The notes below the pieces were generated by a model. It was given only the letters and a program-made list of their open reading frames with translations, searched no databases and had not been told where the DNA came from. Shown one piece after another: positions 18,253-63,475 of a stretch of DNA of 64,000 nucleotides. The translations under genes and the position numbers were made by a program. The first letter of the stretch is position 1; every line of letters begins with the position of its first letter. This DNA comes from Gemmatimonadota bacterium (GTDB lineage Bacteria; JAAXHH01): assembly GCA_026705925.1 (NCBI GenBank), contig JAPOZT010000008.1:68217-132216 (forward strand), in the 5' to 3' direction.

Positions 18253-18366
18253 GGGGCCGTCAGTTTCAGGGCGGCCGTCAGTTCCAGCGGGGCCGTCAGT
18301 TTCAGGGCGGCCGTCAGTTCCAGCGGGGCCGTCAGTTCCAGGGCGGCCGTCAGTTCCAGGGCGGCA
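18253..18366. repeat. tandem 18-nt repeat (GGCCGTCAGTTYCAGSGS) x ~6
   Basis: Near-perfect contiguous copies directly after the murT-like stop (18250), overlapping the 3' end of the convergent PhyH gene. Confidence 0.85.
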
Positions 18367-19123
18367 GGTCGCACCCCTTGAACGGGTAGTGATCGCCGGG
18401 CCTGAACCGGGGGAGCGGAGGGTAGTGGTTGATGCCGTCCACGGTCTTGCCCCGGCACAGGTAGGCGGGGAAGTTCTCGCGCTTGATGCGCGTGGTCGTT
18501 GGTATGTACCGGAGGGTCAGTCCGCACCGTCGCCGGTCGGACAGGTTGGCCTCCGAGCCGTGTATCAGGTAGGGATCGTGCAAGGATACGCCGCCCGCCG
18601 GCACGACGACGTCGACCGCCTCGGATTCATCCACCTTCACATCCAGTTCCGAACTCAATACGTTTTCCCCTTCGGTTCTACGGTGCCGGTACAGTTTCTG
18701 GTCCCGGTGGCTGCCGGGGATGACCCGCATGCAGCCGTTCTCCGGGGTCGAGTCGTCCACGGCCAGCCAGATGGTAATGACTTCCATGGGCTCCAGCGGC
18801 CAGTAGTTCCCGTCCTGGTGCCACAGCACCGGCTGCCCGTCCCCAGGCGGCTTGCTGATGTAATGTGCCGCGAAGAGCGCGATGTCGGGACCCAGAAAGG
18901 GTTCGATGACGTCGATTAGCCGGGGGTCGGTGCAGAGGCGGATCCAGAACGGATCGTCCACGATGAGGTGGTGGTGGTACTGCTCCGGCCGGATGTCGGG
19001 GTACTTCTCTCCCATCCACTCGACATGGCCCTGGGCTTCGGCGGTCAGGGCTTCGTCGATGACCCCGGGCAGGACGACATAGCCGTCTTCTTCGTACCGG
19101 CTTACGATATTGGCGCCGTTCAC
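18350..19123 (-). CDS. phytanoyl-CoA dioxygenase (PhyH) family Fe(II)/2-oxoglutarate oxygenase
   Basis: PhyH pattern VLWHQDGNYW...MRVIPGSH...DRRRCGLTLRY. Confidence 0.85.
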   Translation of the reverse strand: MNGANIVSRYEEDGYVVLPGVIDEALTAEAQGHVEWMGEKYPDIRPEQYHHHLIVDDPFWIRLCTDPRLIDVIEPFLGPDIALFAAHYISKPPGDGQPVLWHQDGNYWPLEPMEVITIWLAVDDSTPENGCMRVIPGSHRDQKLYRHRRTEGENVLSSELDVKVDESEAVDVVVPAGGVSLHDPYLIHGSEANLSDRRRCGLTLRYIPTTTRIKRENFPAYLCRGKTVDGINHYPPLPRFRPGDHYPFKGCDLPPWN

Positions 19124-19523
19124 ACCGGACCTCCCCGCTGTTCGTGTTCGAGTTGATAACTGCCTTACTATAGTTATCCTGTAATAACGACAGCGTCAAC
19201 CGGTCTTCCCGGGGGCACCGGTTTTGCGGTCTCCGTCGCCGATCTGAAGGGTTCAAAGCACAAGCCCCCGGCCGAAACCGGGGGCCTGTAAAAAAAGAAA
19301 AGGCGAAGAACGGGAAACCGGTCAACTGATGCCGACTCGAAGCACGACGTCAACCGCGAGTCGTTTCCCTGTCCCTCACGTTGAAGCTACTTCGTCACCG
19401 GCGCGGCGTCAAGTGCTATCGTCGCCGGCGCGGCGTCAAGCCTGAAAACCACCGGTTGGAAAGCCGTGCCTTGCTCCCGAGAAAGCCGATCGGACTGTCT
19501 TATCCCACTAAAGAATAGAATGG

Positions 19524-19552
19524 TTGACACCCCACCGTGGACTGTGTATTTT
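19524..19552 (+). promoter_or_regulatory. sigma70-like promoter TTGACA-17-TATTTT upstream of korA
   Basis: ttgacaccccaccgtggactgtgtatttt sits ~95 nt upstream of the korA ATG. Two 19-nt direct repeats lie a further ~85 nt upstream. Confidence 0.4.
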
Positions 19553-19645
19553 GTTGGTTCCCACTATGCTGTTTACTACCATGACAGAAACGCGTACGCA
19601 CGTCGGCAGATCAGCTTGTCCGTGATGTACAGACAGGAGAACCCG

Positions 19646-25106: not shown

Positions 25107-26579
25107 TCAGGGTACGTAGGAGGATTTCGGATCCGTGGGAGGCGGCGGCCAGTGCAAACCCCGCTGGCCCGACAGGCCCCGGTTGGGCGGCAACGTGTAT
25201 TCTCGGTCCGGCAGGCCGGTCAGTTCTCCGTTCTGTATCCACGCCGGGTCCAGGTCGGCCAGTTGGTCCACCAGCCGTGCCTTCAACCGACCGACGATTT
25301 CGGCATGACCGGACGAATCCGATAGATCGCGGCGTTCTTCCGGGTCTTGCTCGAGGTCGAATAACTGCGTTCGGTTGCCCACCGGATAGTAGATCAGCTT
25401 GTGCCGGCCGTCGTGCATCATGCGCGTGGCCTGGGCGTTCTCGCCGCATTCGCCGTACAGGTATTCACGCCTGTCGACACCCGCCATGGAACGGCCTTCG
25501 ACCGAGCCGGGGACGTCGATCCCCGCGAGGTCGAGCAGCGTGGGCATAACGTCCTGCCAGCCCACGAGCCGGTCGTCGGTGCGGCTGTGTCCGACCCGGT
25601 CGTCGCCGGCCTGGCCCACGAGTATCATGGGTACGTTGGCCGATTGCTCGTAATACAGGCGCTTCGTTCACAGGCCGTGATCGCCCAGCATGTCCCCGTG
25701 GTCGGCCGTGAAGAGCACGATCGTGTTGTCGATCAGGCATTCCTCCCGCAACGTGCCGATCACCACGCGCAACTGGTGGTCGATGTGGGTACACAGCGCG
25801 TAGAATGCCCTTCTCGCCCATGCGATCTGGGTGTCGCTCATCCCGCAGTTGTTACCCCGAACCGCCTTCAGCGCATAAGGCAAGGCGTCGTGGTCCTCCG
25901 CCCAGTCGCCGCAGTACGGCGTGCCCGGATCCTCGTCACGGTACAGGTCCAGGTAACACTGCAGAGGGGTCAGCGGGGGATGGGGATGGCAGTAGGACAG
26001 GTACCAGAATCCCGGTCGTGTCGGATCGCGGCGCCGGATCATCCGGGCCATCTGGCGTGTGGTCCAGTTGGTAACGTGCATGGCCTCGGGCAGATGCCAG
26101 GGCCGCTGGCTGTAGTCGTTGTTGCTCATGCCGTGGGTGAATCCTTCTCCGGCGTAACCGTTCTCACCGAGAAAAGCCTCGTAGTCGTCCAGTGCGCCGA
26201 TGTTCGGACGGCCCTCTTCCGCCAGGATCACGTCGTCGAACCCGATCCGGTCACGCTGCGGGTACACGTGCAGCTTGCCCACGGCGTAAGCCTGGTATCC
26301 GTTGTCCCGGAAGGTCTGGGCTACGGTGGGGAGCGGCGGCATGGGATTATCGACCTTGAACACCCGGTCGCCGTGCGTTGCCGTGGTCGTTCCGGTCATG
26401 ATCGTCCTGCGGGCGGGAATGCATACCGGGCATTCGCTGTAGGCCCGCGTATACCTGACCCCGCTGCGGGCAAGGGTATCCAGGGTGGGCGTCTGGATCA
26501 CCGGATGTCCCGCGTGACCGAACAGCTTGCCCGGCCAGTGATCGGTACAGACGAGCAATACGTGTGGAGATGACGGCAT
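25107..26579 (-). pseudogene. type I sulfatase (CxPxR formylglycine motif) interrupted by an in-frame TGA at 25668-25670; otherwise intact
   Basis: CTDHW...SECPVCIPARRTIMTG. The sequence reads DHGDMLGDHGL*TKRLYYEQSANVP where homologues (e.g. BetC) have DHGDMLGERGLWYKMNFFEGSARVP. Both halves are in the same frame. No signal peptide. Confidence 0.7.
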
Positions 26580-26891
26580 GGCGCTCCCGCATGAATTATA
26601 CATCGAGTTCAGTCGCGTCGATCGAATACCACAATATACGACACGCGCTGCCGGGTGTCCACCTGTACCGTCGAATGCAGACCATGCGTATAAATTGAAA
26701 GATCGTGTTGACAAGTCTTTATATATCTGTATATTCGTTTATCAGGATATAGTCGTATTCATCGCGCGTGAGCCGCCGTGATGAGGCTCCCGTATGGGAC
26801 TGTCGCGCGTGAGCCGCCTCACAAGGGTTGACGCTCAGGTGCGGCCAGGAACGGACCTCGATACAGGTGCTGATACGCGGGGGGTAATCTT

Positions 26892-27305
26892 ATGGATAGA
26901 GATGTCGCCGTATTCAAGGCTTGTTCGGACGCGACGCGCCTCCGCATACTGTTCCTGCTGACCGAGCGGGAACTATGCGTGTGCGAAATCATGGCGGTCC
27001 TGGATATGCCACAGGGCAAGATCTCCCGGCACCTGGCCGTGCTGAAGCAGTACGGACTGCTTACGGATCGCCGCGACGGCGTATGGATCTACTACGCGCT
27101 GGCCACAGACTCCTCGATCGCCCTGAAGTACGTGTCGGTATATCTCGTCTCGGCCCGCCAGGTCCACGCGCGGGTCCAGGCGGACCTGGACCGGTTGCGC
27201 GGACTGGCCAGCGAGGGCAAGATCTGCGTGCCCCAGCCCTCAATGGCCCTGCTACAGGTAGACGAACGTGATGACCCGGTCCTGCGCGGTCAATCGATGG
27301 TGTAA
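26892..27305 (+). CDS. arsR: ArsR/SmtB family metalloregulator
   Basis: HTH plus the ELCVCEI metal-binding motif. Confidence 0.85.
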   Translation: MDRDVAVFKACSDATRLRILFLLTERELCVCEIMAVLDMPQGKISRHLAVLKQYGLLTDRRDGVWIYYALATDSSIALKYVSVYLVSARQVHARVQADLDRLRGLASEGKICVPQPSMALLQVDERDDPVLRGQSMV

Positions 27306-27316
27306 GGGGAGTTGCA

Positions 27317-28039
27317 GTGAAACCGTACCTACAGGAAACAGCCAGCAGCCCGGACCTCATTCGTTATCTGCAGGCGCGACTGGCGGAATTCCGCCTGATT
27401 CCGGCAGACCGTAAGAAGGCACTGGACCACGTTTCCAAATACATCATGGAGCGGCAGAGCAGCGGAGAACCGACCCGACTGATCTTCATCTGCACACACA
27501 ATGCCCGCCGGAGCCAGATGGCCCAGATCTGGGCCCAGGCCGCCGCGTGGTTTTTTGGCATACGGGGAATTGCCGCGTTCTCGGGCGGCACGGAGGCCAC
27601 CGCCTTCGATCAGAGAGCCGTATCGGCGATGGTCCGGGCGGGATTCCGGGTTGAACTGCAATCGGAGGGGGCCAACCCGGTCTATCTCGTTCATGCAGGG
27701 ACTAAACTCTCCCCGGTGCGCGCGTTCTCCAAGGTTTACCACGATCCATCCAACCCGCAGCACGGTTTCTGCGCAGTCCTGACCTGTTCGAGCGCCGATC
27801 GCGAGTGTCCGGTGATACCCACGGCGGACCAGCGCGTGCTCATCCCATACGAAGACCCCAGGTCCGCCGATGGCACGGACCGGGAGGCGGAGGTCTACGA
27901 CGAACGATGCCGGGAGATCTGCCGCGAGATGGTATGGGTGTTTGCGAGGGCGGCCGGGACGGGCGAAGCGGCCGGAGCGGACGAAGCCGCTGGTGCGGGC
28001 GAAGCGGCCGGGCGCAGATCCACCACGAATTCAACCTGA
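27317..28039 (+). CDS. arsC: arsenate reductase, LMW-PTP (thioredoxin-coupled) type, with ~60-aa N-terminal extension
   Basis: P-loop CTHNARRSQ (CX5R). Downstream [11 protein letters not shown] Cys pair. C-terminal GEAAG repeats. Confidence 0.8.
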
Positions 28040-28047
28040 GCGCATCC

Positions 28048-29088
28048 ATGGATACAACGACGAAACGGCTGTCGGGGCGAGACCGGTACCTGACGCTGTG
28101 GATATTCCTGGCCATGGGCCTCGGCGTCGCACTCGGCGTTTGGACGCCGGATGTGCCCGCACTGATCCAGCTCGGCCAGGTGGGCACGACCAACCTGCCC
28201 ATCGCCATCGGGCTCATCCTGATGATGTATCCCCCGCTGGCCAAGGTAAAGTACGAGGAACTGTGGGACGTTTTCCGCAACGTGCGGATCCTCGGCGCGT
28301 CCCTCTTCCTGAATTGGGTCGTCGGCCCCATGCTCATGTTCGGACTCGCGGCGATCTTCCTGCCGGCGCATCCCGAATACATGACCGGCCTGATCCTCAT
28401 CGGCCTGGCCCGGTGTATCGCCATGGTCATCGTGTGGAACGAACTCGCGAAGGGAAACACGGAGTACGCCGCCGGCCTCGTGGCCTTCAACAGCCTGTTC
28501 CAGGTCTTCTTCTACAGCGTGTACGCCTATGTCTTCATCACGGTGCTTCCACCCTGGTTCGGACTGGAAGGCAGCGTCGTGCCGGTAACGATCGCGCAGA
28601 TCGCGGAGAGCGTGCTCATCTACCTGGGCATCCCCTTCTTCAGCGGCATGGCGACGCGCCTGATCCTGCTGCGGCTCAAGGGACGGCCCTGGTACGAGTC
28701 GACCTTCATCCCCCGCATCAGCCCCATCACCCTGGTGGCGCTGCTGTTCACCATCGTGGTCATGTTCAGCCTGAAGGGCGATACGATCGTGGCCATCCCC
28801 CTGGACGTGGTCCGAATCGCCGTTCCGCTCCTCGTGTATTTCGTGCTCATGTTCCTGATCACCTTCTGGATGGGACGGAAGATCGGCGCGGACTATTCAA
28901 AGAACGCCACGCTTTCCTTCACCGCCGCAAGCAACAACTTCGAACTGGCCATCGCCGTGGCCGTGGCCGTCTTCGGCATCGAATCGGGCGTGGCCTTCGC
29001 AGCGGTCATAGGCCCCCTCGTCGAAGTGCCGGTAATGATCGCGCTGGTCAACGTGGCCCTGCGGTTCCGGGCCATGTATTACAAATGA
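28048..29088 (+). CDS. acr3: arsenite efflux permease ACR3 family
   Basis: [20 protein letters not shown]...[13 protein letters not shown] is typical of ACR3. 346 aa. Confidence 0.85.
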
Positions 29089-31111: not shown

Positions 31112-31295
31112 AACCGTGTAATTAACGGAAACTATTGCGCCATCCCCGCTGTCTAATCGTGCAGATAGTCGCGAACTTCCCGTGAATGACAGGCGCCTGC
31201 GGGTGTATATTAATAGTTAGTATTGATTTAGTATTGATTGGGATGGTAGTAAAACCGGCAGGAGACATTCGACAGGCAGGAAAACAGGAGCAGGC

Positions 31296-48923: not shown

Positions 48924-49712
48924 ATGTTTCAACTGGATGCACACCAGAAGGAATTTATGGATACCTTCGGGTATCTGCACTTCCCCGGCCTGCTCGACGA
49001 CCGGATCGGCGAGATCACAGAGGCTTTCGACGGGCTGCTGAAAAAAAACGGTGGCGACGACCACGAAGGCCTGGAGCGGCTGGCCGTGGTGCCGTTCATC
49101 AACCATGATTCGTACCTGTGCACGCTGTTGGACGATCCCCGCATTCACGGCATCGCGGCCGGCCTGCTGGGCGAGCGGTACCAGTACTGGAACAGCGACG
49201 GGAACCTCTACGTCGGCGACACGCGATGGCACTCCGACACCCAGTGGCCCGAGCCCATCCGTTTCTACAAGATGGCCATCTACCTGGACCCCATGACGAA
49301 GGACACCGGCGCGTTGCGGGTCATACCGGGAAGCCACCGGTTCGGAGAAGGATATGCGGAAACCATCCACGACCACCTGTCCGGCAAAAGGGACGGCTGG
49401 GGTGGACTCCACGGCAGCGAGGTACCGGCGGTCACCGTCGAGACCCGGCCCGGCGACCTGGCAGTCTTCAACCATTCCACCAAGCACAGCGCCTGGGGCG
49501 GCGGAAAGAAAAGGCGCATGTTCACGATCGTATATACCGGACACCACACGGACGGTCGTGATCTCGAGGCCTTCAAAAAGATCATCCGCCAACACGGCTA
49601 TACAACGCGGGAGGTATTCGGTGGGGAGAACGGCCCCCTGCTTTCCACGGCCACGCCCGAACGGCTTCGTCACCTTCAAAACCTGATCACGCACATTCCG
49701 AAAGCGGCTTGA
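48924..49712 (+). CDS. PhyH-family Fe(II)/2OG dioxygenase
   Basis: WHSDTQW...GALRVIPGSHRFG. Confidence 0.8.
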   Translation: MFQLDAHQKEFMDTFGYLHFPGLLDDRIGEITEAFDGLLKKNGGDDHEGLERLAVVPFINHDSYLCTLLDDPRIHGIAAGLLGERYQYWNSDGNLYVGDTRWHSDTQWPEPIRFYKMAIYLDPMTKDTGALRVIPGSHRFGEGYAETIHDHLSGKRDGWGGLHGSEVPAVTVETRPGDLAVFNHSTKHSAWGGGKKRRMFTIVYTGHHTDGRDLEAFKKIIRQHGYTTREVFGGENGPLLSTATPERLRHLQNLITHIPKAA

Positions 49713-51305: not shown

Positions 51306-51551
51306 GGGGCGATTCACCCGGTCGGTTGGGGTCCACGTGCAAAATACAGACCGCCCGGACCGGGTCAAGGCGATTCACCATATCATCCCAGGCGATTCGC
51401 CGTACTACGCTTGACGCGGGGCCGGGATCTGAATAACGTACTTGCAACCCGTCCATCTTGACAAACTCCTTTCGTGAACAACCCCCGATTGTGGCGATCG
51501 GATGGTCCCTCCATGATCACCAATGCCCGCGTTGGTCCCTCTTTGTGCAAA

Positions 51552-53369
51552 ATGACCCGCTCTACCGCGATTACATCCGCCCGCGTGTTTGCAGTTCTCG
51601 TGATTTTCAGCGCGACTGCGGCCGGAATCCTGCGCGTCCTGGGCGGACCGGGCGGACCGGGCGGACCGGGCGGACCGGGCAGTCCGGCCGGCGGCCAACC
51701 CGACCAATCATCCACCCGTTACGTCAACTCCGCAGGCGTCGAACTGCCCCCCGACGCGGCGCCGCCCTCGGAGCAGTACGTCCGCACGTTTCAGCTCGAC
51801 AACACCTACATGGAGTGGTTCCGCACGATCTACAAGGGCACCTACGGCCACCGGATCATCGCCGAACCGCTGATCCGCTTCGACAAGGACTTCAACCTGA
51901 TCCCGGCGGCGGCGAATCGCTGGGAACCCACCGCTGACGGGCTGGGGTGGTATTTCTACTTGCGGGACGACCTAGAGTTTTCCGACGGCAAGCCGCTGAC
52001 CGCCCACGACTACGTGTTTACTCTGCAACGTGGGGCCGATCCGGAAAACGCCTACGACGTGGAGTGGTATTACCGTCCGATCAAGAACTGGGGCCGCGTC
52101 GTGGGCCGGGAGCTGCCCCTCGACTCGCTGGGTGTCCACGCGGTAGACGACTACACCTTGCTCATCGAGACCGACGAACCCTGCGCCTACATGCCGGATC
52201 TGATGGTCGACAGCTGGGTCTCACCGCGCCAGGCGGTGGAGAAGTACGGCGACGCCTGGTCCACGAGCCCGGAGACCTCCATCGCCAGCGGGCCCTTCTA
52301 CCTGGATGAATGGACCAAGGCGGACCGGGTCGTGCTCAAGGCCAATCCCCGGTACCACGGGGCTGCGCGGCCCTACCTGGAGACGCTGATCGCCAGGCTG
52401 CACAACGCCTCGACGCCGCCGCCCCTGCTCGCGTCCTACGAGGCCGACGAGGTGGATTTCGGCCTCGTGACGAACCACGCCGAACTCGCCCGAATCAAGA
52501 CCGATCCGCAGTTGAGCAGGGAGTTGCATTCCTACACGGATTTCGCCACGTACTACCTCACGATGGACACCTACAACCCGCCCTTCGACAACCTCAAAGT
52601 ACGCCAGGCCTTCAGCCACGCCATCGACCGGGACGCCGTGTGCGAATCCGCGCTGCAGGGTTTCGCGATCCCCGCCTACTCCATGCTGCCGCCCGGCTTT
52701 CCGGCGGAAGCGACGGAAGCCCTGAAACCCGTCCAGCGATACGACCCCGCCCTGGGACGCAAGCTACTGGCCGAGGCGGGATACCCCGACGGCAAGGGCT
52801 TCCCGCGCGTGGAGATGTGGGTCCGGCGCGACGTACGGCCGGTGCACGAGGCCGGGGAGGCGATCCACGCCATGATCAAGCAGAACCTCGGGATCGACCT
52901 GGTCGTGCGCAACATGGAGGTCAAGATCTTCATGGACGCGATCAACAGTCACGAGCTTCCCCTGGGGCTCGTCCGGTTCGGCGCGGACTTCATCGATCCC
53001 AGCAGCCTGATGAATCTCTGGCTTTCCTCGGGTCGGCACGCCTGGAAACACGACCGTTTCGACCGGCTGGTGGTCCAGGCGGGAGGCATCGTCGGCGACT
53101 ACGAGGCGCGGATGGACGTCTACCGGCAGGCCGAACGCATCCTGGTGGAGGAAGTGGGCGGCCTCTTCGTATGGTACCCGACGATGAACCAGATCTGGAA
53201 ATCGGACATCAAGGGGGACGCGCTCGAGCCGAACCGGCGCGGATTCCGGGCCTGGCGGGGCGAGCAGATCGGGAACACGGCCTTTACGATATATATAGCG
53301 GAAGAGGACGGGGAGCAGGACGCCGGCACAAAGGGATTCTGGGAGCGGTTGCTGGGGGGCGGCGGATAG
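51552..53369 (+). CDS. ABC transporter substrate-binding protein, family 5 (peptide/oligosaccharide/nickel type), orphan
   Basis: Signal peptide, a GPGGPGGPGGPG linker, and SBP_bac_5 architecture. No permease or ATPase genes adjacent. Confidence 0.8.
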   Translation: MTRSTAITSARVFAVLVIFSATAAGILRVLGGPGGPGGPGGPGSPAGGQPDQSSTRYVNSAGVELPPDAAPPSEQYVRTFQLDNTYMEWFRTIYKGTYGHRIIAEPLIRFDKDFNLIPAAANRWEPTADGLGWYFYLRDDLEFSDGKPLTAHDYVFTLQRGADPENAYDVEWYYRPIKNWGRVVGRELPLDSLGVHAVDDYTLLIETDEPCAYMPDLMVDSWVSPRQAVEKYGDAWSTSPETSIASGPFYLDEWTKADRVVLKANPRYHGAARPYLETLIARLHNASTPPPLLASYEADEVDFGLVTNHAELARIKTDPQLSRELHSYTDFATYYLTMDTYNPPFDNLKVRQAFSHAIDRDAVCESALQGFAIPAYSMLPPGFPAEATEALKPVQRYDPALGRKLLAEAGYPDGKGFPRVEMWVRRDVRPVHEAGEAIHAMIKQNLGIDLVVRNMEVKIFMDAINSHELPLGLVRFGADFIDPSSLMNLWLSSGRHAWKHDRFDRLVVQAGGIVGDYEARMDVYRQAERILVEEVGGLFVWYPTMNQIWKSDIKGDALEPNRRGFRAWRGEQIGNTAFTIYIAEEDGEQDAGTKGFWERLLGGGG

Positions 53370-55028: not shown

Positions 55029-55877
55029 CTACCGATTCCGTGGCGGTATTCGGTCGCCGACGGGTCGGGGTATGGGCCTCCAGTAACCCGAGGGATCGCT
55101 GCCGCGGCAGATTACGGCCCGGTTGTACTCCGGATAGCGGCCCCGCACGTCCGGCGGCAGGTACCGGATCGTCAGGCCGCAGCGCCGGCGGTCGGATACA
55201 TTCGGCTCGGACCCGTGCAACAGCAGATCGGTGTGCATGGAAATCTGGCCCGCCTTCATGACGAAGGGCACCGGATCGCCGCCCCATCTGAGCGGGTCCT
55301 GGACGGTCTGTCCCAGCACGTTGCGTTCGGCTTCCGTACTGTTCTCGAAGGGAATCTGACCGTGAAGGTGGGAACCTGGGATGACCGTCATGGGCCCGTT
55401 CTCTTCGTCCACGTCGTCGATGGCCAACCAAATCGTCACCACCTTGCTCGGGGTCAGAGGCCAGTACGACGCGTCCTGGTGCCAACTCACCCGCTGCACG
55501 TCGCCCGGCATCTTGCAGAAGTAGTGGGTCATCTCGCAGATCAGCGTCTCCCCGACCAGGTCTTCCGCGTAGTCCAGTATCCGCTTGTTCATGGTCAGGT
55601 TGTATATACCCTCGCAGTGCCGCTGCCAGCCATTGATCGAGTAGCTGTTGTATCCTTCCTGCTCGGCGCGGGCCATCAGATCTTCGAAATACAGACGGTT
55701 CTCTTCGGCTTCCTGCGGGGTGAAGACGTCGAGGGGACAGAGATACCCGTTCGCGTTGAAATGGTCGACCTGTTCGCGGGAAAGCGTTTTGGGGTGCTCG
55801 TTCGTTGCCGGGAAAAACCGCAGTTCCCGCTTCATTTCGGGCAGGGCGTCAGTGATGGGCATGGGCGACCTATTCAA
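55029..55877 (-). CDS. PhyH-family Fe(II)/2OG dioxygenase
   Basis: VSWHQDASYW...MTVIPGSH...DRRRCGLTIRY. Close paralogue of 18350-19123. Confidence 0.8.
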   Translation of the reverse strand: MNRSPMPITDALPEMKRELRFFPATNEHPKTLSREQVDHFNANGYLCPLDVFTPQEAEENRLYFEDLMARAEQEGYNSYSINGWQRHCEGIYNLTMNKRILDYAEDLVGETLICEMTHYFCKMPGDVQRVSWHQDASYWPLTPSKVVTIWLAIDDVDEENGPMTVIPGSHLHGQIPFENSTEAERNVLGQTVQDPLRWGGDPVPFVMKAGQISMHTDLLLHGSEPNVSDRRRCGLTIRYLPPDVRGRYPEYNRAVICRGSDPSGYWRPIPRPVGDRIPPRNR

Positions 55878-56791: not shown

Positions 56792-56830
56792 AACAGGCCT
56801 TAACGCTCCCCAAACGCCCCTGATAACGCT

Positions 56831-56890
56831 CTATCGCGCCCCTATCGCGCCCCTATCGCGCCCCTATCGCGCCCCTATCGCGCCCCCCTG
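56831..56890. repeat. tandem 12-nt repeat (CTATCGCGCCCC) x5
   Basis: Five perfect copies between the J-domain gene stop and the convergent gene. It overlaps the last codons of 56864-58021. Confidence 0.85.
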
Positions 56891-58021
56891 ATTGAGTACC
56901 CAGCGCGTCAGTGGTCCGCGGTTCTTGGTCACGACCAGCCGTTTGTCTCTCAACTCTTCCAGTGCTCTTCGAACCTGGCGTTCGCTGACGCCAGTACCTA
57001 ACCGAGCGTGAATGTCGCGGCGCGTCAGCCCCTCCTCTGCACGATTGAGCAAAACGAGGACTTCAGCACACCGGTTCGCACTACGACCTCCGCGATCACC
57101 CGATTCCGGCACGAACTGCCCGTTTCGGAACCTCACGGTGACGCACCAGCCGTCGTCTTCGATTTCCAGCGTGGGAAGGCCCGCTGCGCTGGTCAGGTCC
57201 GTCATCTTCAGCGTTCCGTGCCCCCACTCCTCTATGATCCCGCGTCGATGGAAAGCGCGGGCGATTAGTGGATTCCACGGGCGTGATTCGTGCGGAACGA
57301 ACAGCTTCTCAGGCGTCAGCCCGAAATGCAGCGATCCGGCGGACGTGATCTCCAGGCGGTCATCGTAGATCGCCACGCCAATGGAACCGCCGCCGATGGA
57401 ATAGTCGCGATGGCACAACGCGTTCGCCAGCGCCTCGCGGGTCGCAAGTGGCGGATAAAGCGGTTCGTCGATTCGGTCGAAGCGATCATCTTCGAACCGA
57501 GCGGCGATCGGCAGGCTGTCGCGCAGGAAACGTTCAGCGTTCGCGAGGAGCGTGAAGGCGTTGCCGTTGAACTGGCGATTGTCCAGGAATTTCATCTTGT
57601 CGGTTCCCCGGAAGCGGGCCACGCGAAGCAGGCATTGCGGCATTTCGACCTCCAATCTTTCCCCGTTGCCGAACAGGACGGCTGCCGCTCGAAGCAATAC
57701 GCCATCGTGCAGCAAACCGAGTCCTCGCAGCAGGTCGGCCGGCTCCCTGCTTGGCGGTTCATCCATGCGGCCGCGCCGAACGCCCTCCGCGACGACCCGT
57801 CGTATCTCCGCATCGTCAAGGTCGCTGATCGACCATCCGGCGGCAGGTTGGTTTTCCCACCGCTGCTCGCTGTGCATCCGTTCGAACAGCATCCGGTTGT
57901 ACTCGTCAGGAGACAGTACCAGCGTGGTGTTCCCGACCCGGCGGGTTCCCGTCGTCTCCTTGAACTCCAATGTCTCGGACTCGCCGGAGGCGGTGAGGGG
58001 TGTGATTAGTTCGTTATTCAT
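56864..58021 (-). CDS. AlbA_2 (Schlafen-like 'divergent AAA') plus HATPase_c_4 plus C-terminal winged-helix protein, often misannotated as RecG-like regulator
   Basis: The N-terminus ELITPLTASGESETLEFKETTG is the typical AlbA_2 opening. The central region is HATPase_c_4-like. The C-terminal wHTH is RRDIHARLGTGVSERQVRRALEELRDKRLV. Confidence 0.65.
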   Translation of the reverse strand: MNNELITPLTASGESETLEFKETTGTRRVGNTTLVLSPDEYNRMLFERMHSEQRWENQPAAGWSISDLDDAEIRRVVAEGVRRGRMDEPPSREPADLLRGLGLLHDGVLLRAAAVLFGNGERLEVEMPQCLLRVARFRGTDKMKFLDNRQFNGNAFTLLANAERFLRDSLPIAARFEDDRFDRIDEPLYPPLATREALANALCHRDYSIGGGSIGVAIYDDRLEITSAGSLHFGLTPEKLFVPHESRPWNPLIARAFHRRGIIEEWGHGTLKMTDLTSAAGLPTLEIEDDGWCVTVRFRNGQFVPESGDRGGRSANRCAEVLVLLNRAEEGLTRRDIHARLGTGVSERQVRRALEELRDKRLVVTKNRGPLTRWVLNQGGAIGAR

Positions 58022-58076
58022 GCTATCATCTCCTTTTGCATACTGGTCTGTCGGAAAGGAAGCAGGTCGGATAACG

Positions 58077-60260
58077 CTATTCCATCAGGACACTCCTGAA
58101 CCGGGCAATCGTATCCTCGTCCAGGTCTTCGATCCGCACTTCGCCGGAACCGAGCTCCGCGAGAAGATCATTCAGATGCCTGTCGCGGTTCCTGAGGCGG
58201 TTGGCATCGGCCGTGGTCATTTCCCGGTGGATGAGCCGCAGGCGCTCCCGCTGCTCCGAAGTCGGATAGGTAAACCGCAACTCGAAACGCCGCGCTCTCA
58301 GTTTCTCATATTCTGCTTTCAACTGGGCCATGGACTCGCCGAAACCAAGCACGCGGACCCACGCCTTACTTCGCGTTAACGCCGTAAACAGGCAGTTGCG
58401 TACGTTCGCCAGATTACGAACCGCCGAGTGACAGTCCTGGGCATTGATGATATAGACCATGCCGGCTTCGTTGCCCTTGGCGCGGTGAATCCCGGTCAGG
58501 GTCACCGATGCTCTGCCCGGTCGGAAGAAGGTATTCGGATCGGTGTCGACTCCGGCGAGATGGGATCTGATGCCCAGTTCCTTCAAACGACTGCGTATCG
58601 GTTCGACCTTCTCCCGAGTCGCACGAGGATCGGGGTTGATGACCATGATGTCGTCGTGGCGCAGTTCGTCCTTCAGGAAGTTCTCGGCAATGGCCTCCGC
58701 CAGCCAGTCCGCCTGTTCATCTTGGTTTCTGAAGGTGATAAAACGAATCAAGTCGTCGAGGTTGGAATGGTCTTCCAGAAATCCCGGACTCGTATCTTCC
58801 GTACGGTCAAGCGTAACGTCCGAACCGTCGCGCAGTGCCCCTTCCCGCACGCTGTAACCGATGTCTTCCCATAAATGAGCCCGGTCGAACATCTGGACCA
58901 GACCGGTTTCCATCGCAGGGGGCGGTTTCCGGTATATCCCGAGTCCAAGGGCAAACGCCGTGGCCAGCACCGGTTTCGAGTTGCGGTAACATTTCGACAG
59001 CATGATATCACGCTGCGGTGCGAGATCACCGGTGTCGTCAAACCTCACTTTGGGCGATCCATCCTTGTGCTTCCCGAAAATTTCTTCGGGAGAAGGCAGG
59101 GAACTGCCGCGAAGATTCTGCAGTTCGTCATAGGCGTACACCAGTCTCTTGGGTTGTTTGAGCAGTTTGTAGCAGAGCCTCAGAAATACGGGCGGTAAAT
59201 CCTGCGCCTCGTCGACAAGTATCGCGTCGTAGACCGGTTCTCGATTACGTGCATTAGCAAGGGCGTATTCGCACGCCCCCTTGAACTCCCCACCCGGTCC
59301 GAATCTGTTGCGCGCCTTTCCATAGTCAAAAAACGCCATTCCGTACAGGCGGCAGAACTCGGCATAGATGCCCCTGCGATCCTTGCCCTGCCAGGCACCC
59401 CAGGCGTTGACGACACGCAGCTTGTTCCAATCAGGCTCATCGCCGGTTTGTTCGATGAAGAAGTTGTTGATAAGGCGACGAAAATGATCCTTTAAGGAAC
59501 GTGAATTGAACGTGACCGCGATGCGCCATTCGGGATGATACGCATGGAAATAGGCGGCCTTCAGCGCCAGCACGATGGTTTTGCCCGAACCCGCCAGACC
59601 GCGAATACGTTGTATGCCTTCGACCGTTTCCATGACGGCGCGATGCTGCATGTTGTCCAGTGTCGCGATCGATTCCTCGAGTTTGACCAGCTTTGCGCCT
59701 CGCGAATCCTCCTCCGCAACACGCCGGTTGTATCCCCTTTTTCGCATCGTGGTGATGTGCTCGATCGCCGACAGCACCTTCGCGCACATATCCTGGTCAT
59801 GCGGACGCGACCAGGTGAACCGGTTCAGTTCCTGTATGAGCGAGGAGGCGCTCGCGAGCGGGTAGTCCCCTGAACGAGATGAATCACGATTTGAAACACG
59901 ACATGTATCCGGATTGGTCAGTGCGGGGGCGAATGAGATCGTATGGATGGGAACCATGAGATCCCGCCGACGCATCAGTCCCTGGTGTACCTTGAGCCGG
60001 GCTTCGAGCTTGTTGGCCGAATCATCCTGCCGCGCCCCGTAGTCACCCGTTTCGTGACCCTCTATGAGATCGAAAACGACCACGCCCATGTCAGCCGAAA
60101 CCAGCAGGGCGTCAATCATCTGGAGTCCTTCGGACGTACTGAAAATCGGATAGCCGATGAACAAGCACCCCGACCATGCGGATTGCTGGGAAACGATCTC
60201 CACCAGGGCATCGCTTGACGCAGGCTTCTGGCTGGCACCTCGAACGATATCGATACTCAT
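58077..60260 (-). CDS. NERD-domain plus SF1 (UvrD/Rep-like) helicase, Nhi-like architecture
   Basis: N-terminal NERD-like region (IDALLVSADMGVVVFDLIEG). Walker A GLAGSGKT. Motif II ILVDEAQDL. Motif VI LTGIHRAKGNEAGMVYI. C-terminal LFTALTRSKAWVRVLG. Start taken at MSIDIV because the upstream 33 codons are translated from a direct repeat. Confidence 0.75.
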   Translation of the reverse strand: MSIDIVRGASQKPASSDALVEIVSQQSAWSGCLFIGYPIFSTSEGLQMIDALLVSADMGVVVFDLIEGHETGDYGARQDDSANKLEARLKVHQGLMRRRDLMVPIHTISFAPALTNPDTCRVSNRDSSRSGDYPLASASSLIQELNRFTWSRPHDQDMCAKVLSAIEHITTMRKRGYNRRVAEEDSRGAKLVKLEESIATLDNMQHRAVMETVEGIQRIRGLAGSGKTIVLALKAAYFHAYHPEWRIAVTFNSRSLKDHFRRLINNFFIEQTGDEPDWNKLRVVNAWGAWQGKDRRGIYAEFCRLYGMAFFDYGKARNRFGPGGEFKGACEYALANARNREPVYDAILVDEAQDLPPVFLRLCYKLLKQPKRLVYAYDELQNLRGSSLPSPEEIFGKHKDGSPKVRFDDTGDLAPQRDIMLSKCYRNSKPVLATAFALGLGIYRKPPPAMETGLVQMFDRAHLWEDIGYSVREGALRDGSDVTLDRTEDTSPGFLEDHSNLDDLIRFITFRNQDEQADWLAEAIAENFLKDELRHDDIMVINPDPRATREKVEPIRSRLKELGIRSHLAGVDTDPNTFFRPGRASVTLTGIHRAKGNEAGMVYIINAQDCHSAVRNLANVRNCLFTALTRSKAWVRVLGFGESMAQLKAEYEKLRARRFELRFTYPTSEQRERLRLIHREMTTADANRLRNRDRHLNDLLAELGSGEVRIEDLDEDTIARFRSVLME

Positions 60261-60297
60261 GACGATTCCTTCCGGCAGGTCGCTTTCACCATCGCGC

Positions 60298-60367
60298 CAC
60301 GCACTCGCCAAGCATGCGCCACGTACACGCCACGCACACGTCACGCACTCGCCAAGCATGCGCCACT
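60298..60367. repeat. 25-nt direct repeat x2 (CACGCACTCGCCAAGCATGCGCCAC) with 20-nt spacer, in a CACGC-rich tract
   Basis: Immediately upstream of the helicase start on the minus strand. Confidence 0.7.
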
Positions 60368-60662
60368 CACGCGCAACGCACGCGTTCTCAGCGATCCGAA
60401 AGCGACAGTTCTTACGCAGTCCGGTTGCAGCGAGGCTGCGGCCTGGCTGCGGTCTGGCTGGCTGTCCGTTCAGACTGCGTTTTTACGGCTGTATAATTGA
60501 TTAGTAGGGAGAAACGAGGGAGTCTCGTAAGGAAACTCAGATGGAGAGATGGCGCCAGGGAGCGTTGGATGCCTGGCTATAGTCCATGGAGAAACTGGAA
60601 AAGGCGGTGCAGGTGGGTTGGGTAAGGGAGGTTATGGCGTCTTCCAAGGACAACCAGAAGTC

Positions 60663-60755
60663 TTAGGTTTCTGGCAGAAAAGTCACCACGCCTTCGCAAG
60701 GCGCAGCCCACGTCGGTTTCGAAATGACATGGGTGTCCAGCAGGTACCCGTTCAT
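60663..60755 (-). pseudogene. VapC/PIN toxin remnant (N-terminal 30 codons then TAA)
   Basis: MNGYLLDTHVISKPTWAAPCEGVVTFLPET* matches the VapC opening (M.YLLDTNVISE..KP.P...V..WL). Its ATG overlaps the antitoxin TGA as ATGA. No PIN core follows in any frame. Confidence 0.5.
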
Positions 60756-61057
60756 GCTACATCGTCGTCAGCGAACGGCGTCTTGCGATTGGTGTTGCGG
60801 TCCGGAGTGGTCAGGTTGGTACCGCGCGGTATGTTGTTCAACAGCCATTGGCCGAGTGCTTTCCGCGGTGCTTCCTTTCGCTCTCGCCAGACACGTTCCG
60901 GAATGACGACGAACGCTCTGCGCGTTCCAATGCGTTGCGGGCCTTCTTCTTCCGACAGGCGTAGTATCTCGGACAGCCGCGCCTTGGCCTTGGATAACTT
61001 CCAGACTCGTGTAGGTTTGACTTCGTGCTGATTCAATGTGCCACCTTTTAAGTTCAA
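60752..61057 (-). CDS. Phd/YefM-type antitoxin-like protein
   Basis: VWKLSKAKARLSEILRLSEEEGPQRIGTRRAFVVIPERVW fits the Phd/YefM antitoxin pattern. ATGA-coupled to the downstream VapC remnant. Confidence 0.55.
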   Translation of the reverse strand: MNLKGGTLNQHEVKPTRVWKLSKAKARLSEILRLSEEEGPQRIGTRRAFVVIPERVWRERKEAPRKALGQWLLNNIPRGTNLTTPDRNTNRKTPFADDDVA

Positions 61058-61153
61058 TGATTGACCTTAAAGTTCTTCCATTACCGCAACCGTAACGTCC
61101 ACCACTGCAGTCGAATCCGGCCCTGGTGCGTCAATCATCGCCCGTTTCAACCG

Positions 61154-61489
61154 TTATTCTGCGTACATCTCGGCGATGATGCGGCGCAACTGTGCCGCGC
61201 TTTCGGCGGAAAGGCTGTCAACAAGTTGTCCCAGACGCTGCTTGCTGATGGTGCGTATCTGGTCAACGGCAATCTCGGCGTCCCGATCCGCGCACCGCAC
61301 TTGCAGACGCCCTCGCCAGCGTGGATGCAGGTTAGAGGTAATGGGACAGACGACCACAGTCTCGAGGTGCCGGTTCATTTCGTCGCGGCTGACAATCACC
61401 ACCGGCCTGACCTTGCGAATTTCAGCACCTTTGGTGGGATTCAAGTCAGCCATGTACACGGCATACCGCCGGGGAAACGGGGCCATCAA
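61154..61489 (-). CDS. mazF: type II toxin MazF/PemK family mRNA interferase
   Basis: YMADLNPTKGAEIRKVRPVVIVS...VVVCPITS...DQIRTISKQRL. Confidence 0.8.
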   Translation of the reverse strand: MMAPFPRRYAVYMADLNPTKGAEIRKVRPVVIVSRDEMNRHLETVVVCPITSNLHPRWRGRLQVRCADRDAEIAVDQIRTISKQRLGQLVDSLSAESAAQLRRIIAEMYAE

Positions 61490-61749
61490 TCCAATCCATC
61501 GGCAATTGTGACGTCGAAGTCGCTCCAGTCCTCTGATTCTGCGGCCATGGCGCGGTAGGTCTCCTCCCAGGACAGGTTATGATTCACCTTGCCCCGCAAG
61601 ACGATGCTTTCCTCCATCTCTTCCAGCGTCACCCGGTCACTCCATCCATACTTGTCCAGCAGCGCTTTGGGAATGCGGATGCCTCTGGAATTCCCAATAG
61701 GAATCAACTTGATTTCCCTGATGCGAGACGATTTGTCCATACACTTCAC
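61486..61749 (-). CDS. mazE: MazE/AbrB-family (SpoVT_AbrB swapped-hairpin) antitoxin
   Basis: IPIGNSRGIRIPKALL. 4-nt overlap with mazF. Confidence 0.75.
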   Translation of the reverse strand: MKCMDKSSRIREIKLIPIGNSRGIRIPKALLDKYGWSDRVTLEEMEESIVLRGKVNHNLSWEETYRAMAAESEDWSDFDVTIADGLD

Positions 61750-61943
61750 CTCCGCTGAGGGCTTATTACGTAATTATAGTAATTACTTTTTATTCCTTTG
61801 TCAACGCCATACCGCCTGTCGCTCCTGCATACCTGTCGAGCCAGTGACCTGTTGATCTCCACCAAATGTGATTGGGACGCTTCATGCCATTCGTTGCCAA
61901 TGCTCTATACTCATTCGCTTCCTCGTTGAAATCCAGACCCGGC

Positions 61944-62627
61944 TCACACCGGCCACTTTTCCTTCCGAAACCCCATGTCCCAGAACATCCACTCGTACCG
62001 GCTGGTTGTGACGTAGTGCGCCAGCATGGCCTCGCGGTCTTCAGTCGGAAGTCCTCGCGCGACCCGTTTCGTGATCTCGAGGACGGCGACGACGCACTCG
62101 GCGAACTGCTCGCCGGCGTAGGTGTCGATCCACTGCTGATACATGGGGTCCGGCGAACCCTTCTCGGCCAGCGCCTTGCCCACCTCCCAGTAGATCCAGT
62201 AGCAGGGAAGCACCACGGCCACGACCTCGTGGAAAGGCCGTCCGTAGGCCACGGAAAGCAGGTAGCTGGTATAGGCCTGGCATACCGGCGCCTTGGGCGT
62301 AGTCCAGACCTTTTCCGACGACAGGCCGAAGACGTCGAAGAAGTTCTCCTGCATGGCTCGCTCTTCCACGAGACACCCCTTGGCATGCTCGTTGAAGAGG
62401 ATGATGGTGTCCTCGTCCGGTGCCTTCACCGCGGCGAGGCTCAGGGCCCGGGCGTAGTCCTTTAGATACAGCGCGTCCTGGACGGTGTAGAATTCGAAGG
62501 CCGAACGGTCGAGGTCGCCGGAGGTAAGCCCCTTGATGAAGGGATGTGCGAGGATCGCGTCGTATATTGTGGCCGTCTCCGACCACATGAGATCGGTTAT
62601 TGAGGTTTTCGAGGCGGCCTTGGACAT
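61944..62627 (-). CDS. tenA: TenA/thiaminase II family (heme-oxygenase-like fold) protein
   Basis: TenA_C family pattern (AHPFIKGLTSGDLDRSAFEFYTVQDALYL...LPCYWIYWEVG). Confidence 0.7.
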   Translation of the reverse strand: MSKAASKTSITDLMWSETATIYDAILAHPFIKGLTSGDLDRSAFEFYTVQDALYLKDYARALSLAAVKAPDEDTIILFNEHAKGCLVEERAMQENFFDVFGLSSEKVWTTPKAPVCQAYTSYLLSVAYGRPFHEVVAVVLPCYWIYWEVGKALAEKGSPDPMYQQWIDTYAGEQFAECVVAVLEITKRVARGLPTEDREAMLAHYVTTSRYEWMFWDMGFRKEKWPV

Positions 62628-63475
62628 CAGGACACTCCCGCCCGATCCACAGTCCCGACCCGCACCGCACCGTCCTTCCGCTGGTCGACCGCACGCACGT
62701 GTTCCACGTAGTCTTCCCGCCGAAAGTAAGCGCTGTCCAGGTTGTCCGTTTCGGACGTGACTGACACGGTGACCCAGTGAGTCGCGAAGCCGCGCCGCCA
62801 GCGGTCCGACGTGTTGCGGCGCGACGAGTGGAGCGTCTCCGAGTGGTGGAAGACCACGCCGCCCTTGCGCACCGGTGCGGAGGCTTCCATCGCCCAGTCG
62901 ATCAGGTCGTCCGGTGGCGCCAGGTTGTAGGGCTGGCCGGGGACCTCAACGTGGTCGATGATCCCCTTTTTGTGCGAACCGGAGATGTAACGGAGGCAGC
63001 CGTTCTCCTCGTCCACGTCGTCGAGGGCGATCCAGGCCGTGATGACGTGGCCGCCCGGCGTGCACCGGAAGTAAAAGTTGTCCTGGTGGTAGGGTTTCTC
63101 CGAGCCGAACCGTGGTGGTTTCATGAAGAGCTGGTCGCTCTTGAGCAGAGGTTCTTCACCGGTGAGCTGCCGGAGGATGTCCCGGAGCCGGCCATCCAGG
63201 GCGAAATCGCGGAACAACGGACTCCGCAGGTAGGGACTGTCGATCTTCCGAGGTGCAGTCTCGCCCGATTCGGAACGGTCCAGCAGATAGCCCTCCATGG
63301 ATTCCTCTACTTCCATGGAATCCGCCGTTTCCACGGCCAGTCGGGCCACCTCGTCGGCCTCTTCGGGCCGGTAGACACCTTCGACGACCAGCCATCCCCG
63401 CTCCTGGAACAACTGAACCTGTTCTTCGCTGATCATTCCGGCTTCCTTCCCGGATGGCGCGGGCCGGCCACTCAT
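62627..63475 (-). CDS. PhyH-family Fe(II)/2OG dioxygenase
   Basis: YHQDNFYF...LRYISGSH. Probable start at MISEEQ (63436). Overlaps tenA by 1 nt. Confidence 0.8.
   Translation of the reverse strand: MSGRPAPSGKEAGMISEEQVQLFQERGWLVVEGVYRPEEADEVARLAVETADSMEVEESMEGYLLDRSESGETAPRKIDSPYLRSPLFRDFALDGRLRDILRQLTGEEPLLKSDQLFMKPPRFGSEKPYHQDNFYFRCTPGGHVITAWIALDDVDEENGCLRYISGSHKKGIIDHVEVPGQPYNLAPPDDLIDWAMEASAPVRKGGVVFHHSETLHSSRRNTSDRWRRGFATHWVTVSVTSETDNLDSAYFRREDYVEHVRAVDQRKDGAVRVGTVDRAGVS

Follow-up and report, generated by a model that had tools for sequence, protein, structure and literature searches.

Eight divergent PhyH-family oxygenase genes in a conserved chromosome stretch of a Gemmatimonadota bacterium

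We describe here a chromosome stretch of a Gemmatimonadota bacterium (GenBank assembly GCA_026705925.1, contig JAPOZT010000008.1) in which genes of the PhyH family of Fe(II)- and 2-oxoglutarate (2OG)-dependent oxygenases lie close together. The window, that is, the whole 64,000 nucleotides analysed (positions 68,217 to 132,216 of the contig, forward strand), holds seven of these genes (PhyH1 to PhyH7), and an eighth (PhyH8) lies ~2.8-3.6 kb past its end. In the reading that we favor, at a probability of roughly 0.55, this is a conserved PhyH-rich stretch coding for eight old, divergent, apparently active cytoplasmic oxygenases, which would act as separate modules of an oxidation toolbox and would constitute neither one pathway nor a polysaccharide utilisation locus (PUL). 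In each enzyme, Fe(II) is most likely held by the HxD...H triad and 2OG by a conserved arginine; O2 would then serve to hydroxylate a small organic substrate that is imported and differs from one enzyme to the next, with dealkylation or deamination possibly following. Together, the eight would serve to oxidise diverse host- or seawater-derived compounds.

The PhyH proteins and their relatives

Seven PhyH-type proteins, with two tandem pairs among them, had been named in an earlier reading of the window made from the sequence alone, and both claims held. The seven open reading frames (ORFs) score 49-133 bits against PF05721 in Pfam (E 9.5e-13 to 2e-38), for which the curated gathering cutoff is 22 bits. 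A hidden Markov model (HMM) built from the seven proteins recovered exactly those seven, and no others, from a six-frame translation of the 64-kb window. Gaps of 39 nt (40409/39587, PhyH3-PhyH2) and 32 nt (48924/49745, PhyH4-PhyH5) separate the tandem genes. PhyH8, at 5808-6659 of locus L001 (loci are cited by L numbers throughout), carries a precomputed PF05721 match, so that the count of eight refers to the window plus a 10-kb flank beyond its end (L001; ENA ERZ23496776, ROBB21-1_SAMN13943209_METAG-scaffold_2, 1,124,648 bp). All seven window proteins already stand in NCBI as 'phytanoyl-CoA dioxygenase family protein [Gemmatimonadota bacterium]' (MCY3712126, 142, 143, 150, 151, 156 and 164). 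For two of the genes, the NCBI starts differ from those of the sequence-only reading, giving 55029-55862 (277 aa) for PhyH6 and 62627-63436 (269 aa) for PhyH7.

The HxD...H iron triad is aligned in 7/7 proteins, as WH(Q/F/R/S)D or YHQD followed by a distal histidine, and the aligned position of the arginine for the C5 carboxylate of 2OG, ~10 residues after that histidine, is occupied in all seven. In PhyH4, H103, D105, H188 and R197/R198 do not vary among 34 homologues. An AlphaFold2 model of PhyH4 based on these 34 homologues (pLDDT 92, pTM 0.90), the only paralogue modelled, has the PhyH-type double-stranded beta-helix fold, and its top Foldseek matches in the PDB are all PhyH-type 2OG oxygenases (E ~2e-11), the best being SnoK, EvdO2 and FtmOx1 (TM 0.55-0.67, identity <=21%). 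Family and fold are thus secure; the substrates are not. By inspection, none of the seven has a hydrophobic N-terminal signal sequence, in contrast to the S1/P1 nuclease, the SBP_bac_5 protein and the redoxin of the same window, which clearly have one; a cytoplasmic location is therefore predicted for the oxygenases.

Pairwise protein identity among the seven is 21-44%, too low for copies that arose recently or in assembly, and the proteins are not unrelated cupins, since all are genuine PhyH-type oxygenases. PhyH1 and PhyH6 had been called close paralogues that both end in DRRRCGLT(L/I)RY. They are indeed the closest pair in the window, at only 44% over 180 aa, and the motif sits ~40-50 residues before the C terminus rather than at it. 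The next pair is PhyH2 and PhyH4 (39587/48924) at 33%, and PhyH8 shares 47% identity with PhyH4, the highest value between paralogues in this genome; PhyH2, PhyH4 and PhyH8 belong to the same subfamily. In the alignment, a low-complexity stretch of ~45 residues rich in Gly, Asn and Asp is inserted into PhyH5 immediately ahead of the HxD motif. The total length of the PhyH5 ORF differs among relatives. Gly/Pro-rich runs also occur near the N termini of the SBP_bac_5 (51462-53369) and GH89-like (41696-44560) proteins of the window.

Closer relatives were found outside this genome. PhyH4 has orthologues of 53-70% identity in Gemmatimonadaceae, Opitutales, Candidatus Moanabacter, Zixibacteria, Latescibacterota and Spirochaetia, and proteins of the PhyH4 type ~50% identical to it occur in Chloroflexi, including 'TSY'. 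PhyH3 homologues (57-70% identical) lie on other metagenome contigs, which carry no organism label. For PhyH6 there are 6892 homologues, the best 120 of which are all at least 60% identical (60-74%) and include Poribacteria (62-66%) and Latescibacterota. PhyH7 homologues are 43-50% identical over the full length, with only 50 library representatives at E <= 1e-30. Because homologues elsewhere (43-70%) are closer than any paralogue in the genome (<=47%) for the four proteins compared, PhyH3, 4, 6 and 7, the set reads as an accumulation of old subfamilies and not as the lineage-specific expansion proposed earlier. For PhyH3 and PhyH7 the comparison shows an old split only, and a crossing of phyla is seen for PhyH4 and PhyH6. 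That the PhyH modules draw on at least five old subfamilies is the best-supported account of their origin.

No close solved homologue emerged from PDB sequence searches for any window PhyH. The best match of PhyH1 (E 1.6e-20) and of PhyH6 (E 2.3e-19) is 6zyk, for which a literature search gave only irrelevant papers; that of PhyH3 is kanamycin B dioxygenase KanJ (E 9e-12), and that of PhyH7 is PHYHD1 (E 8e-24). PhyH2 has no PDB sequence relative, and PhyH4 and PhyH5 have no PDB sequence match.

Several specific functions were considered and rejected. Homologues of PhyH6 bear the JGI name of a SyrB2/CytC3-type halogenase (TIGR01762), but the hallmark of these enzymes is replacement of the triad aspartate by Ala or Gly, and the aspartate is kept everywhere; the model gives 30-82 bits where 226 are required. 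Ectoine hydroxylase EctD (TIGR02408, cutoff 336) gave 18-36 bits in five paralogues and no match for PhyH3 or PhyH4. The phosphonate hydroxylase model PhnY/PhnY* (NF052437) matched PhyH1, 5, 6 and 7 at 25-45 bits against a cutoff of 500 and the other three not at all, and Pfam scans of the window and L001 found no HD-domain gene that could stand for a PhnZ-type phosphohydrolase. Across the halogenase, EctD, methylphosphonate hydroxylase and PtlH models, no NCBIfam equivalog came near its cutoff for any PhyH. A role as phytanoyl-CoA 2-hydroxylase proper (EC 1.14.11.18) was likewise discarded, as human PAHX matches at E 1e-9 to 1e-16 (1.7e-16 for PhyH1) but is never the best match, and there are no coenzyme A (CoA) ligase or lyase neighbours.

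Conservation and clustering of the genes

A scan of GTDB species genomes with PhyH4 yielded 39 loci. The full gene order, PhyH2-PhyH3-GH89-TMEM164-x-CPT-BNR2-PhyH4-PhyH5-YgjV-SBP5-ECF-Ada-PhyH6-DnaJ, is shared by ~20 species-level genomes, several of them closed chromosomes of 3.7-3.9 Mb, in which PhyH4 is 83-94% identical; these syntenic relatives are labelled Gemmatimonadota, Latescibacterota or 'bacterium'. PhyH6 is the most conserved paralogue (87-96% identity within the clade). Identity is 62-93% for PhyH2, which is fragmented in L013, and 76-85% for PhyH5, a singleton in 90% clusters. PhyH3 was not detected in L007, L013, L018 and L020, nor the gene for the chloramphenicol phosphotransferase-like (CPT-like) kinase in L018, L019 and L024.

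A more distant relative is L024 (CAZQGS010000034.1, uncultured Gemmatimonadota), which has 40% GC compared with 63% here and a PhyH4 of 69% identity. It keeps the same order in compacted form, at 52-88% protein identity (64% for PhyH5), and retains PhyH2, 4, 5, 6 and 8, that is, 5/8 of the set. The efflux pumps, GH89-like protein, TMEM164, CPT, SBP5, ECF sigma factor, sulfatase, PhyH3 and PhyH7 are not detectable in it (PhyH7 is missing from its place between TenA and HpcH); altogether, at least a dozen genes of the region besides the PhyH genes that it keeps have no detectable match. The shift in composition with kept collinearity may reflect genome streamlining, and the retention of five PhyH genes in so compacted a locus suggests that these genes matter.

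The eight genes lie among ~43 annotated genes (MCY3712126-164 and four more) in ~50 kb. Random placement among 3300 genes was simulated, and the occurrence of eight PhyH genes in some 50-gene span was scored. The resulting P is < 0.002 if PhyH genes make up <=2% of all genes, 0.04 at 3% and 0.4 at 4.5%. In Poribacteria, the record holders, PhyH exceeds 1.9% of genes (PMC3909097).

Several points weigh against the toolbox reading. The order conserved in relatives, even in L024, includes unrelated genes and may be general collinearity rather than selection for PhyH clustering; collinearity alone is thus no proof of functional coupling. Above an assumed PhyH share of ~4% of the genes of this metagenome-assembled genome (MAG), the local density is unremarkable in the simulation. 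That the substrates differ is deduced solely from sequence divergence and differing neighbours, and the sulfatases and BNR_2 proteins that recur in the neighbour census below hint at a more coherent, carbohydrate-related role. The sponge origin, finally, is deduced from ROBB21 in the name of the record and from how the isolates of relatives are named. The first two points, along with the high PhyH share of Poribacteria, would fit a cluster without functional meaning, in which PhyH genes are very numerous in the genome and their order is frozen by descent. We regard this as unlikely in view of the low P at a share of <=2%, the recurrence of tandem and near-tandem PhyH pairs in unrelated phyla, and the five genes retained in L024.

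Neighbouring genes and possible substrates

By spacing, the genes fall into five separate PhyH-containing units, presumably transcription units: PhyH1; PhyH3-PhyH2; BNR2-PhyH4-PhyH5 (35 nt between BNR2 and PhyH4); PhyH6; and aminotransferase-HpcH-PhyH7-TenA (Table 1). The GH89-like gene, which lies ~480 nt upstream of PhyH3 on the same strand, and the CPT gene may be loosely attached to the second and third units, and PhyH8 might be counted with the fifth. PhyH1 stands alone between the MurT-like ligase gene and those of the 2-oxoacid:ferredoxin oxidoreductase, as does PhyH6 between the Ada/Ogt and DnaJ-domain genes.

Table 1. Genes and regions of the window, in window coordinates
Feature	Position	Strand	Evidence or content
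Region before PhyH1	0.3-18 kb		redoxin, MiaA, polysaccharide deacetylase, aminotransferases, GFO-DHDPS-xylose-isomerase-like-AKR run, ThuA-GFO fusion, enolase-superfamily protein, MurT-like ligase
PhyH1	18350-19123	-	PF05721 E 1.7e-35; exact match MCY3712126.1
Region between PhyH1 and PhyH2	19.4-39.5 kb		2-oxoacid:ferredoxin oxidoreductase alpha and beta, NrtR, TauE, S1/P1 nuclease, sulfatase, ArsR, SBF transporter, EamA, amidohydrolase, HlyD, two AcrB pumps
Sulfatase	25107-26738	-	Sulfatase E 2.2e-30, SGSH_C E 1.7e-15; two ORFs abutting in one frame
PhyH2	39587-40369	-	PF05721 E 1.6e-16; exact match MCY3712142.1; second gene of PhyH3-PhyH2 tandem
PhyH3	40409-41215	-	PF05721 E 8.7e-17; most divergent paralogue
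Region between PhyH3 and PhyH4	41.7-48.9 kb		GH89-like, TMEM164-family, protein with sub-threshold DUF4185 match, CPT-like kinase, BNR_2
GH89-like protein	41696-44560	-	NAGLU_C E 3.8e-20 (73 bits), NAGLU TIM barrel E 2.2e-10 (40 bits)
Protein called 'beta-propeller GH'	45315-46853	-	DUF4185 20.4 bits, cutoff 39.5
CPT-like P-loop kinase	46793-47650	+	PF07931 E 3.9e-38; start approximate
BNR_2 beta-propeller protein (BNR2)	47809-48888	+	PF13088 E 9.2e-20; 35 nt upstream of PhyH4
PhyH4	48924-49712	+	PF05721 E 9.5e-13; first gene of PhyH4-PhyH5 tandem
PhyH5	49745-50776	+	PF05721 E 2.6e-19 over C-terminal half
Region between PhyH5 and PhyH6	50.8-55.0 kb		YgjV, SBP_bac_5, ECF sigma factor, Ada/Ogt
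PhyH6	55029-55862	-	PF05721 E 6.8e-28; NCBI 277-aa form MCY3712156.1
Region between PhyH6 and TenA	56.0-61.8 kb		DnaJ-domain protein, then low-GC insert: HATPase_c_4, UvrD-like helicase, MazE/PemK
Variable insert	56864-61773		HATPase_c_4, UvrD-like helicase, two small ORFs, MazE/PemK toxin-antitoxin pair; not part of the PhyH set
Region at window end	61.9-64 kb		TenA, PhyH7, HpcH
TenA/PqqC-family protein	61944-62627	-	PF03070 E 3.9e-40; last gene of aminotransferase-HpcH-PhyH7-TenA unit
PhyH7	62627-63436	-	PF05721 E 2e-38; NCBI 269-aa form MCY3712164.1
HpcH/HpaI-type aldolase	63472-64000	-	PF03328 E 2.4e-25; cut by window end

The sequence-only reading had joined the PhyH genes and their neighbours into a single glycan- or lipid-tailoring system. 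The oxygenases are genuine, but the single pathway is not supported, the interleaved genes being mostly unrelated (2-oxoacid:ferredoxin oxidoreductase, RND efflux, ArsR, Ada, ECF sigma factor, DnaJ-domain protein and a toxin-antitoxin/helicase insert). The putative glycan enzymes themselves are distant from characterised ones. In the GH89-like protein, both NAGLU Pfam domains score above cutoff, and GH89 structures in the PDB match at only E 3e-5 over 220 residues; the protein had been described as 'DUF4838 GH-like' and scores as a remote GH89/NAGLU. The 'beta-propeller GH' stays beside BNR2 in the clade and in L024, yet this label finds no support, since a sub-threshold DUF4185 match is all that the protein has and no PDB match is significant. 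The best PDB match of BNR2 is the uncharacterised structural-genomics protein Dfer_1899 (E 1e-43), and true sialidases match at only E 2e-6.

The sulfatase has its CxPxR motif (CIPAR), and its frame is broken by an in-frame TGA at 25668-25670 (...GDHGL*TKRLYYE...), so that an intact S1 formylglycine sulfatase is not encoded as read. This position is presumably a conserved Trp in most sulfatases (...GDHG(L)W.K...), for which reason a change of TGG to TGA is the simplest explanation, and a pseudogene or a sequencing error is likely; selenocysteine or another recoding was judged unlikely. By inspection, the GH89-like protein, the so-called beta-propeller GH, BNR2 and the sulfatase have no signal peptide, and Pfam scans of the ~55 window genes found no SusC/SusD or TonB-dependent receptor and no secreted carbohydrate-active enzyme. 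A PUL was rejected on these grounds, and the link of the locus to glycans through its GH-like proteins is thin.

We also took a census of 121 ORFs within 7 kb of PhyH4 orthologues at 13 non-clade loci (Pfam). The commonest families were PhyH (13), BNR_2 (9), Sulfatase (5) and SGSH_C (5), with further matches to xylose-isomerase-like, MR_MLE and UxuA families. All BNR_2 matches come from Spirochaetia loci, where 14 nt separate the end of the BNR_2 gene from the PhyH4 orthologue that follows; the Spirochaetia protein is only 27% identical to BNR2 and belongs to a different subfamily. Orthologues of BNR2 proper (55-66% identity; Chloroflexi TSY and three unlabelled contigs) had no adjacent PhyH gene in 4/4 loci, and such orthologues often adjoin Gfo/Idh/MocA genes. 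On metagenome contigs outside the clade, no GH89 gene was found beside PhyH3 homologues, two of which (L047 and L048) lie beside aldo-keto reductase (AKR) and Gfo/Idh/MocA (GFO) genes. Apart from a second PhyH gene, no partner of the PhyH genes recurs; sulfatases and sugar oxidoreductases form a loose background. The association of PhyH with sulfatase and sugar enzymes seen earlier is thus real in a loose sense, and the particular partnerships of NAGLU with PhyH3 and of BNR2 with PhyH4 are not kept outside the clade.

These data bear on the proposal that PhyH, sulfatase, GH89-like protein, BNR2 and propeller form one lineage-specific system for sulfated, methylated or branched glycans. The positions of the GH89-like gene upstream of PhyH3-PhyH2 and of BNR2 upstream of PhyH4-PhyH5, the census and the Spirochaetia arrangement all speak for it, as does the enrichment of GH33-type genes in sponge MAGs (PMC8163846). 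We nevertheless find it doubtful. The window has neither the uptake system nor the secreted enzymes that such a system would be expected to show, its sulfatase is broken, its GH-like proteins are remote or without assignment, and most interleaved genes have no relation to glycans. Furthermore, L024 lacks NAGLU, CPT, SBP and sulfatase and keeps five PhyH genes, homologues of PhyH3 and orthologues of BNR2 elsewhere do without the corresponding partners, and the paralogues are old subfamilies.

A narrower version concerns aminosugars. When host aminosugars or glycans are broken down, some of the oxygenases might stand in for steps that otherwise need hydrolysis or acetyl-CoA, with PhyH3 acting like KanJ to remove the C2 amino group of glucosamine-type residues and PhyH4/PhyH5 acting on the product of BNR2. 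The partners of PhyH3 would be the GH89-like protein here and a PIG-L deacetylase with Gfo/Idh/MocA or aldo-keto reductases elsewhere, which would parallel KanN-KanJ-KanK. The metagenome contig of L045 (Ga0209544_1000105) has at 7036-11282 a run of genes on one strand, in which a PIG-L-family deacetylase is joined by a homologue of PhyH3 (62%), another PhyH-like gene and a Gfo/Idh/MocA oxidoreductase; the arrangement is reminiscent of the same aminosugar-modification logic as KanN-KanJ-KanK. If true, this would amount to an undescribed O2/2OG-dependent catabolic route for aminosugars, but the evidence for a KanJ-like PhyH3 comes from context and is weak, and we hold the idea to be improbable.

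Equally improbable is that some paralogues, especially of the PhyH6/PhyH1 type, are acyl-CoA or lipid hydroxylases taking part in alpha-oxidation of the branched or isoprenoid fatty acids abundant in sponges. The family is named after phytanoyl-CoA 2-hydroxylase, and PAHX (PhyH1) and PHYHD1 (PhyH7) are among the PDB matches. Orthologues of PhyH6 typically stand in tandem with a second, unrelated PhyH gene, and in L052 (6001-11282; ERZ25766621 contig_14) the orthologue (62%) and second PhyH are followed on the same strand by genes for a CoA-transferase, a MaoC hydratase, an SDR and a xylose-isomerase-like TIM barrel. This run hints at a CoA-linked substrate for the PhyH6 subfamily in at least one lineage. 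However, the PhyH6 contexts of L049 and L051 lack CoA enzymes, no acyl-CoA ligase, 2-hydroxyacyl-CoA lyase or beta-oxidation gene lies beside any window PhyH, and PAHX is no closer in sequence than family members that modify sugars or amino acids. Least probable by far is that the PhyH proteins are tailoring enzymes of a secondary-metabolite cluster: the closest solved structures are indeed tailoring enzymes (SnoK/SnoN, EvdO1/O2, KanJ, FtmOx1, MysH), which probably reflects which members were crystallised, and the genes are scattered through 50 kb in which housekeeping genes are interspersed, with no polyketide synthase, nonribosomal peptide synthetase, terpene synthase, glycosyltransferase or other core gene in the window or 10-kb flank.

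At the end of the window, the stop of PhyH7 overlaps the start of TenA by 1 nt, and PhyH7 lies between TenA and HpcH, whose full gene in L001 codes for 254 aa and has an aminotransferase gene upstream. Further into the flank follow an amidohydrolase, PhyH8, a formamidase-type amidase, an amino-acid permease, another aminotransferase and a gamma-glutamyltranspeptidase. The context of PhyH7 and PhyH8 concerns amino acids or amines, not glycans. Aldolases of the HpcH/HpaI family cleave 4-hydroxy-2-oxo acids, and by analogy the aminotransferase-HpcH-PhyH7-TenA unit may therefore hydroxylate, transaminate and then split an amino-acid-like substrate by a retro-aldol step.

The Gfo/Idh/MocA genes had also been placed next to the PhyH genes; they lie 6-12 kb before the first of them. 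At 6615-12548, GFO/IDH/MocA, a DHDPS-family lyase, a xylose-isomerase-like TIM barrel and an aldo-keto reductase form a run, with a ThuA-GFO fusion on the opposite strand; these genes, which stand apart from the PhyH set, have the look of a cluster for the oxidation of sugars or sugar acids. An ArsR-family regulator gene is followed by an SBF-family transporter gene at 26874-29088; the SBF family takes in ACR3 arsenite carriers, and the two may be an arsenic-resistance pair. An HlyD-type adaptor gene precedes two large AcrB-family RND pump genes (1262 and 1087 aa, MdtABC-like) at 31227-39528, and all three are absent in L024. The window has a GC content of ~63% (GC3 ~0.8) and no tRNA. Its segment at 56.9-61.8 kb has a GC content of 0.56 against 0.63 and is a variable insert, since TenA-PhyH7-HpcH follows directly after DnaJ in L014 and L018-L021. 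It is possibly mobile or defence-related; alignment of its borders with an insert-free relative revealed no clear junction or repeat. An 11-nt tandem repeat (CGCGCCCCTAT, ~five copies) occupies the intergenic space at ~56830-56890 between the DnaJ-domain gene and the insert.

Host setting and comparison with known systems

The organism appears to belong to a marine host-associated (sponge or coral) clade, in agreement with the setting suggested earlier. Relatives carry the isolate names SB0665_bin_8, APA_bin_41 and Plut_88884, which we take to be sponge and coral MAG series. We infer that ROBB21 in the record name refers to the sponge set of Robbins et al. 2021. In that study, 60 Gemmatimonadota MAGs are reported from reef sponges (PMC8163846). 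A role of the PhyH enzymes in symbiosis is conceivable. A literature search combining phytanoyl-CoA dioxygenase, sponge and Gemmatimonadota found nothing.

The annotation of these genes as PhyH and the expansion of PhyH in sponge symbionts (Poribacteria, 2014) were already known. We add the local clustering of the genes, their synteny across a Gemmatimonadota clade and subfamilies common to other phyla. The locus by itself reveals no new mechanism. Few enzyme families of sponge symbionts and other marine heterotrophs are as expanded and as little understood as PhyH, and the eight genes provide a target set for substrate screening, in which PhyH6 is the most conserved, PhyH3 is KanJ-like and PhyH7 belongs to an aminotransferase-aldolase operon.

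Among characterised enzymes, human PAHX (2a1x) and PHYHD1 (2opw) share the Pfam family, the HxD...H triad and the 2OG arginine with the proteins described here, and PHYHD1 is the best solved match of PhyH7; the similarity is distant, CoA-handling neighbours are missing here, and the proteins are not orthologues. KanJ (6s0r), an enzyme for the oxidative deamination of an aminosugar at C2', gives PhyH3 its best solved match, and PhyH3-type genes lie beside sugar and aminosugar genes. The similarity, taken over the sequence as a whole, is low, there is no aminoglycoside cluster here, and the GH89 partnership is limited to this clade. SnoK/SnoN and EvdO1/EvdO2 give the best structural matches of the PhyH4 model and recurrent sequence matches for PhyH1, 6 and 7, at an identity of <=21% and with no biosynthetic cluster context here.

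At the level of gene clusters, the window resembles Bacteroidota-type PULs and the sulfatase-rich islands of marine PVC bacteria in that sulfatase, GH-like, Gfo/Idh/MocA, xylose-isomerase-like TIM barrel and enolase-superfamily genes co-occur. It differs from them in having no SusC/SusD or TonB receptor and no secreted enzymes, in its interleaved unrelated genes and in its disrupted sulfatase. A close parallel is the PhyH expansion in Poribacteria described by Kamke et al. in 2014 (PMC3909097), where many divergent PhyH-domain genes without known substrate likewise occur in an uncultured marine symbiont and PhyH6-type proteins are 62-66% identical. The PhnY function in use of 2-aminoethylphosphonate that was proposed there is not applicable here, as no PhyH gene lies beside one for a PhnZ-type HD phosphohydrolase. 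The present genes, moreover, belong to another phylum, Gemmatimonadota, and are locally clustered and syntenic across ~20 species.

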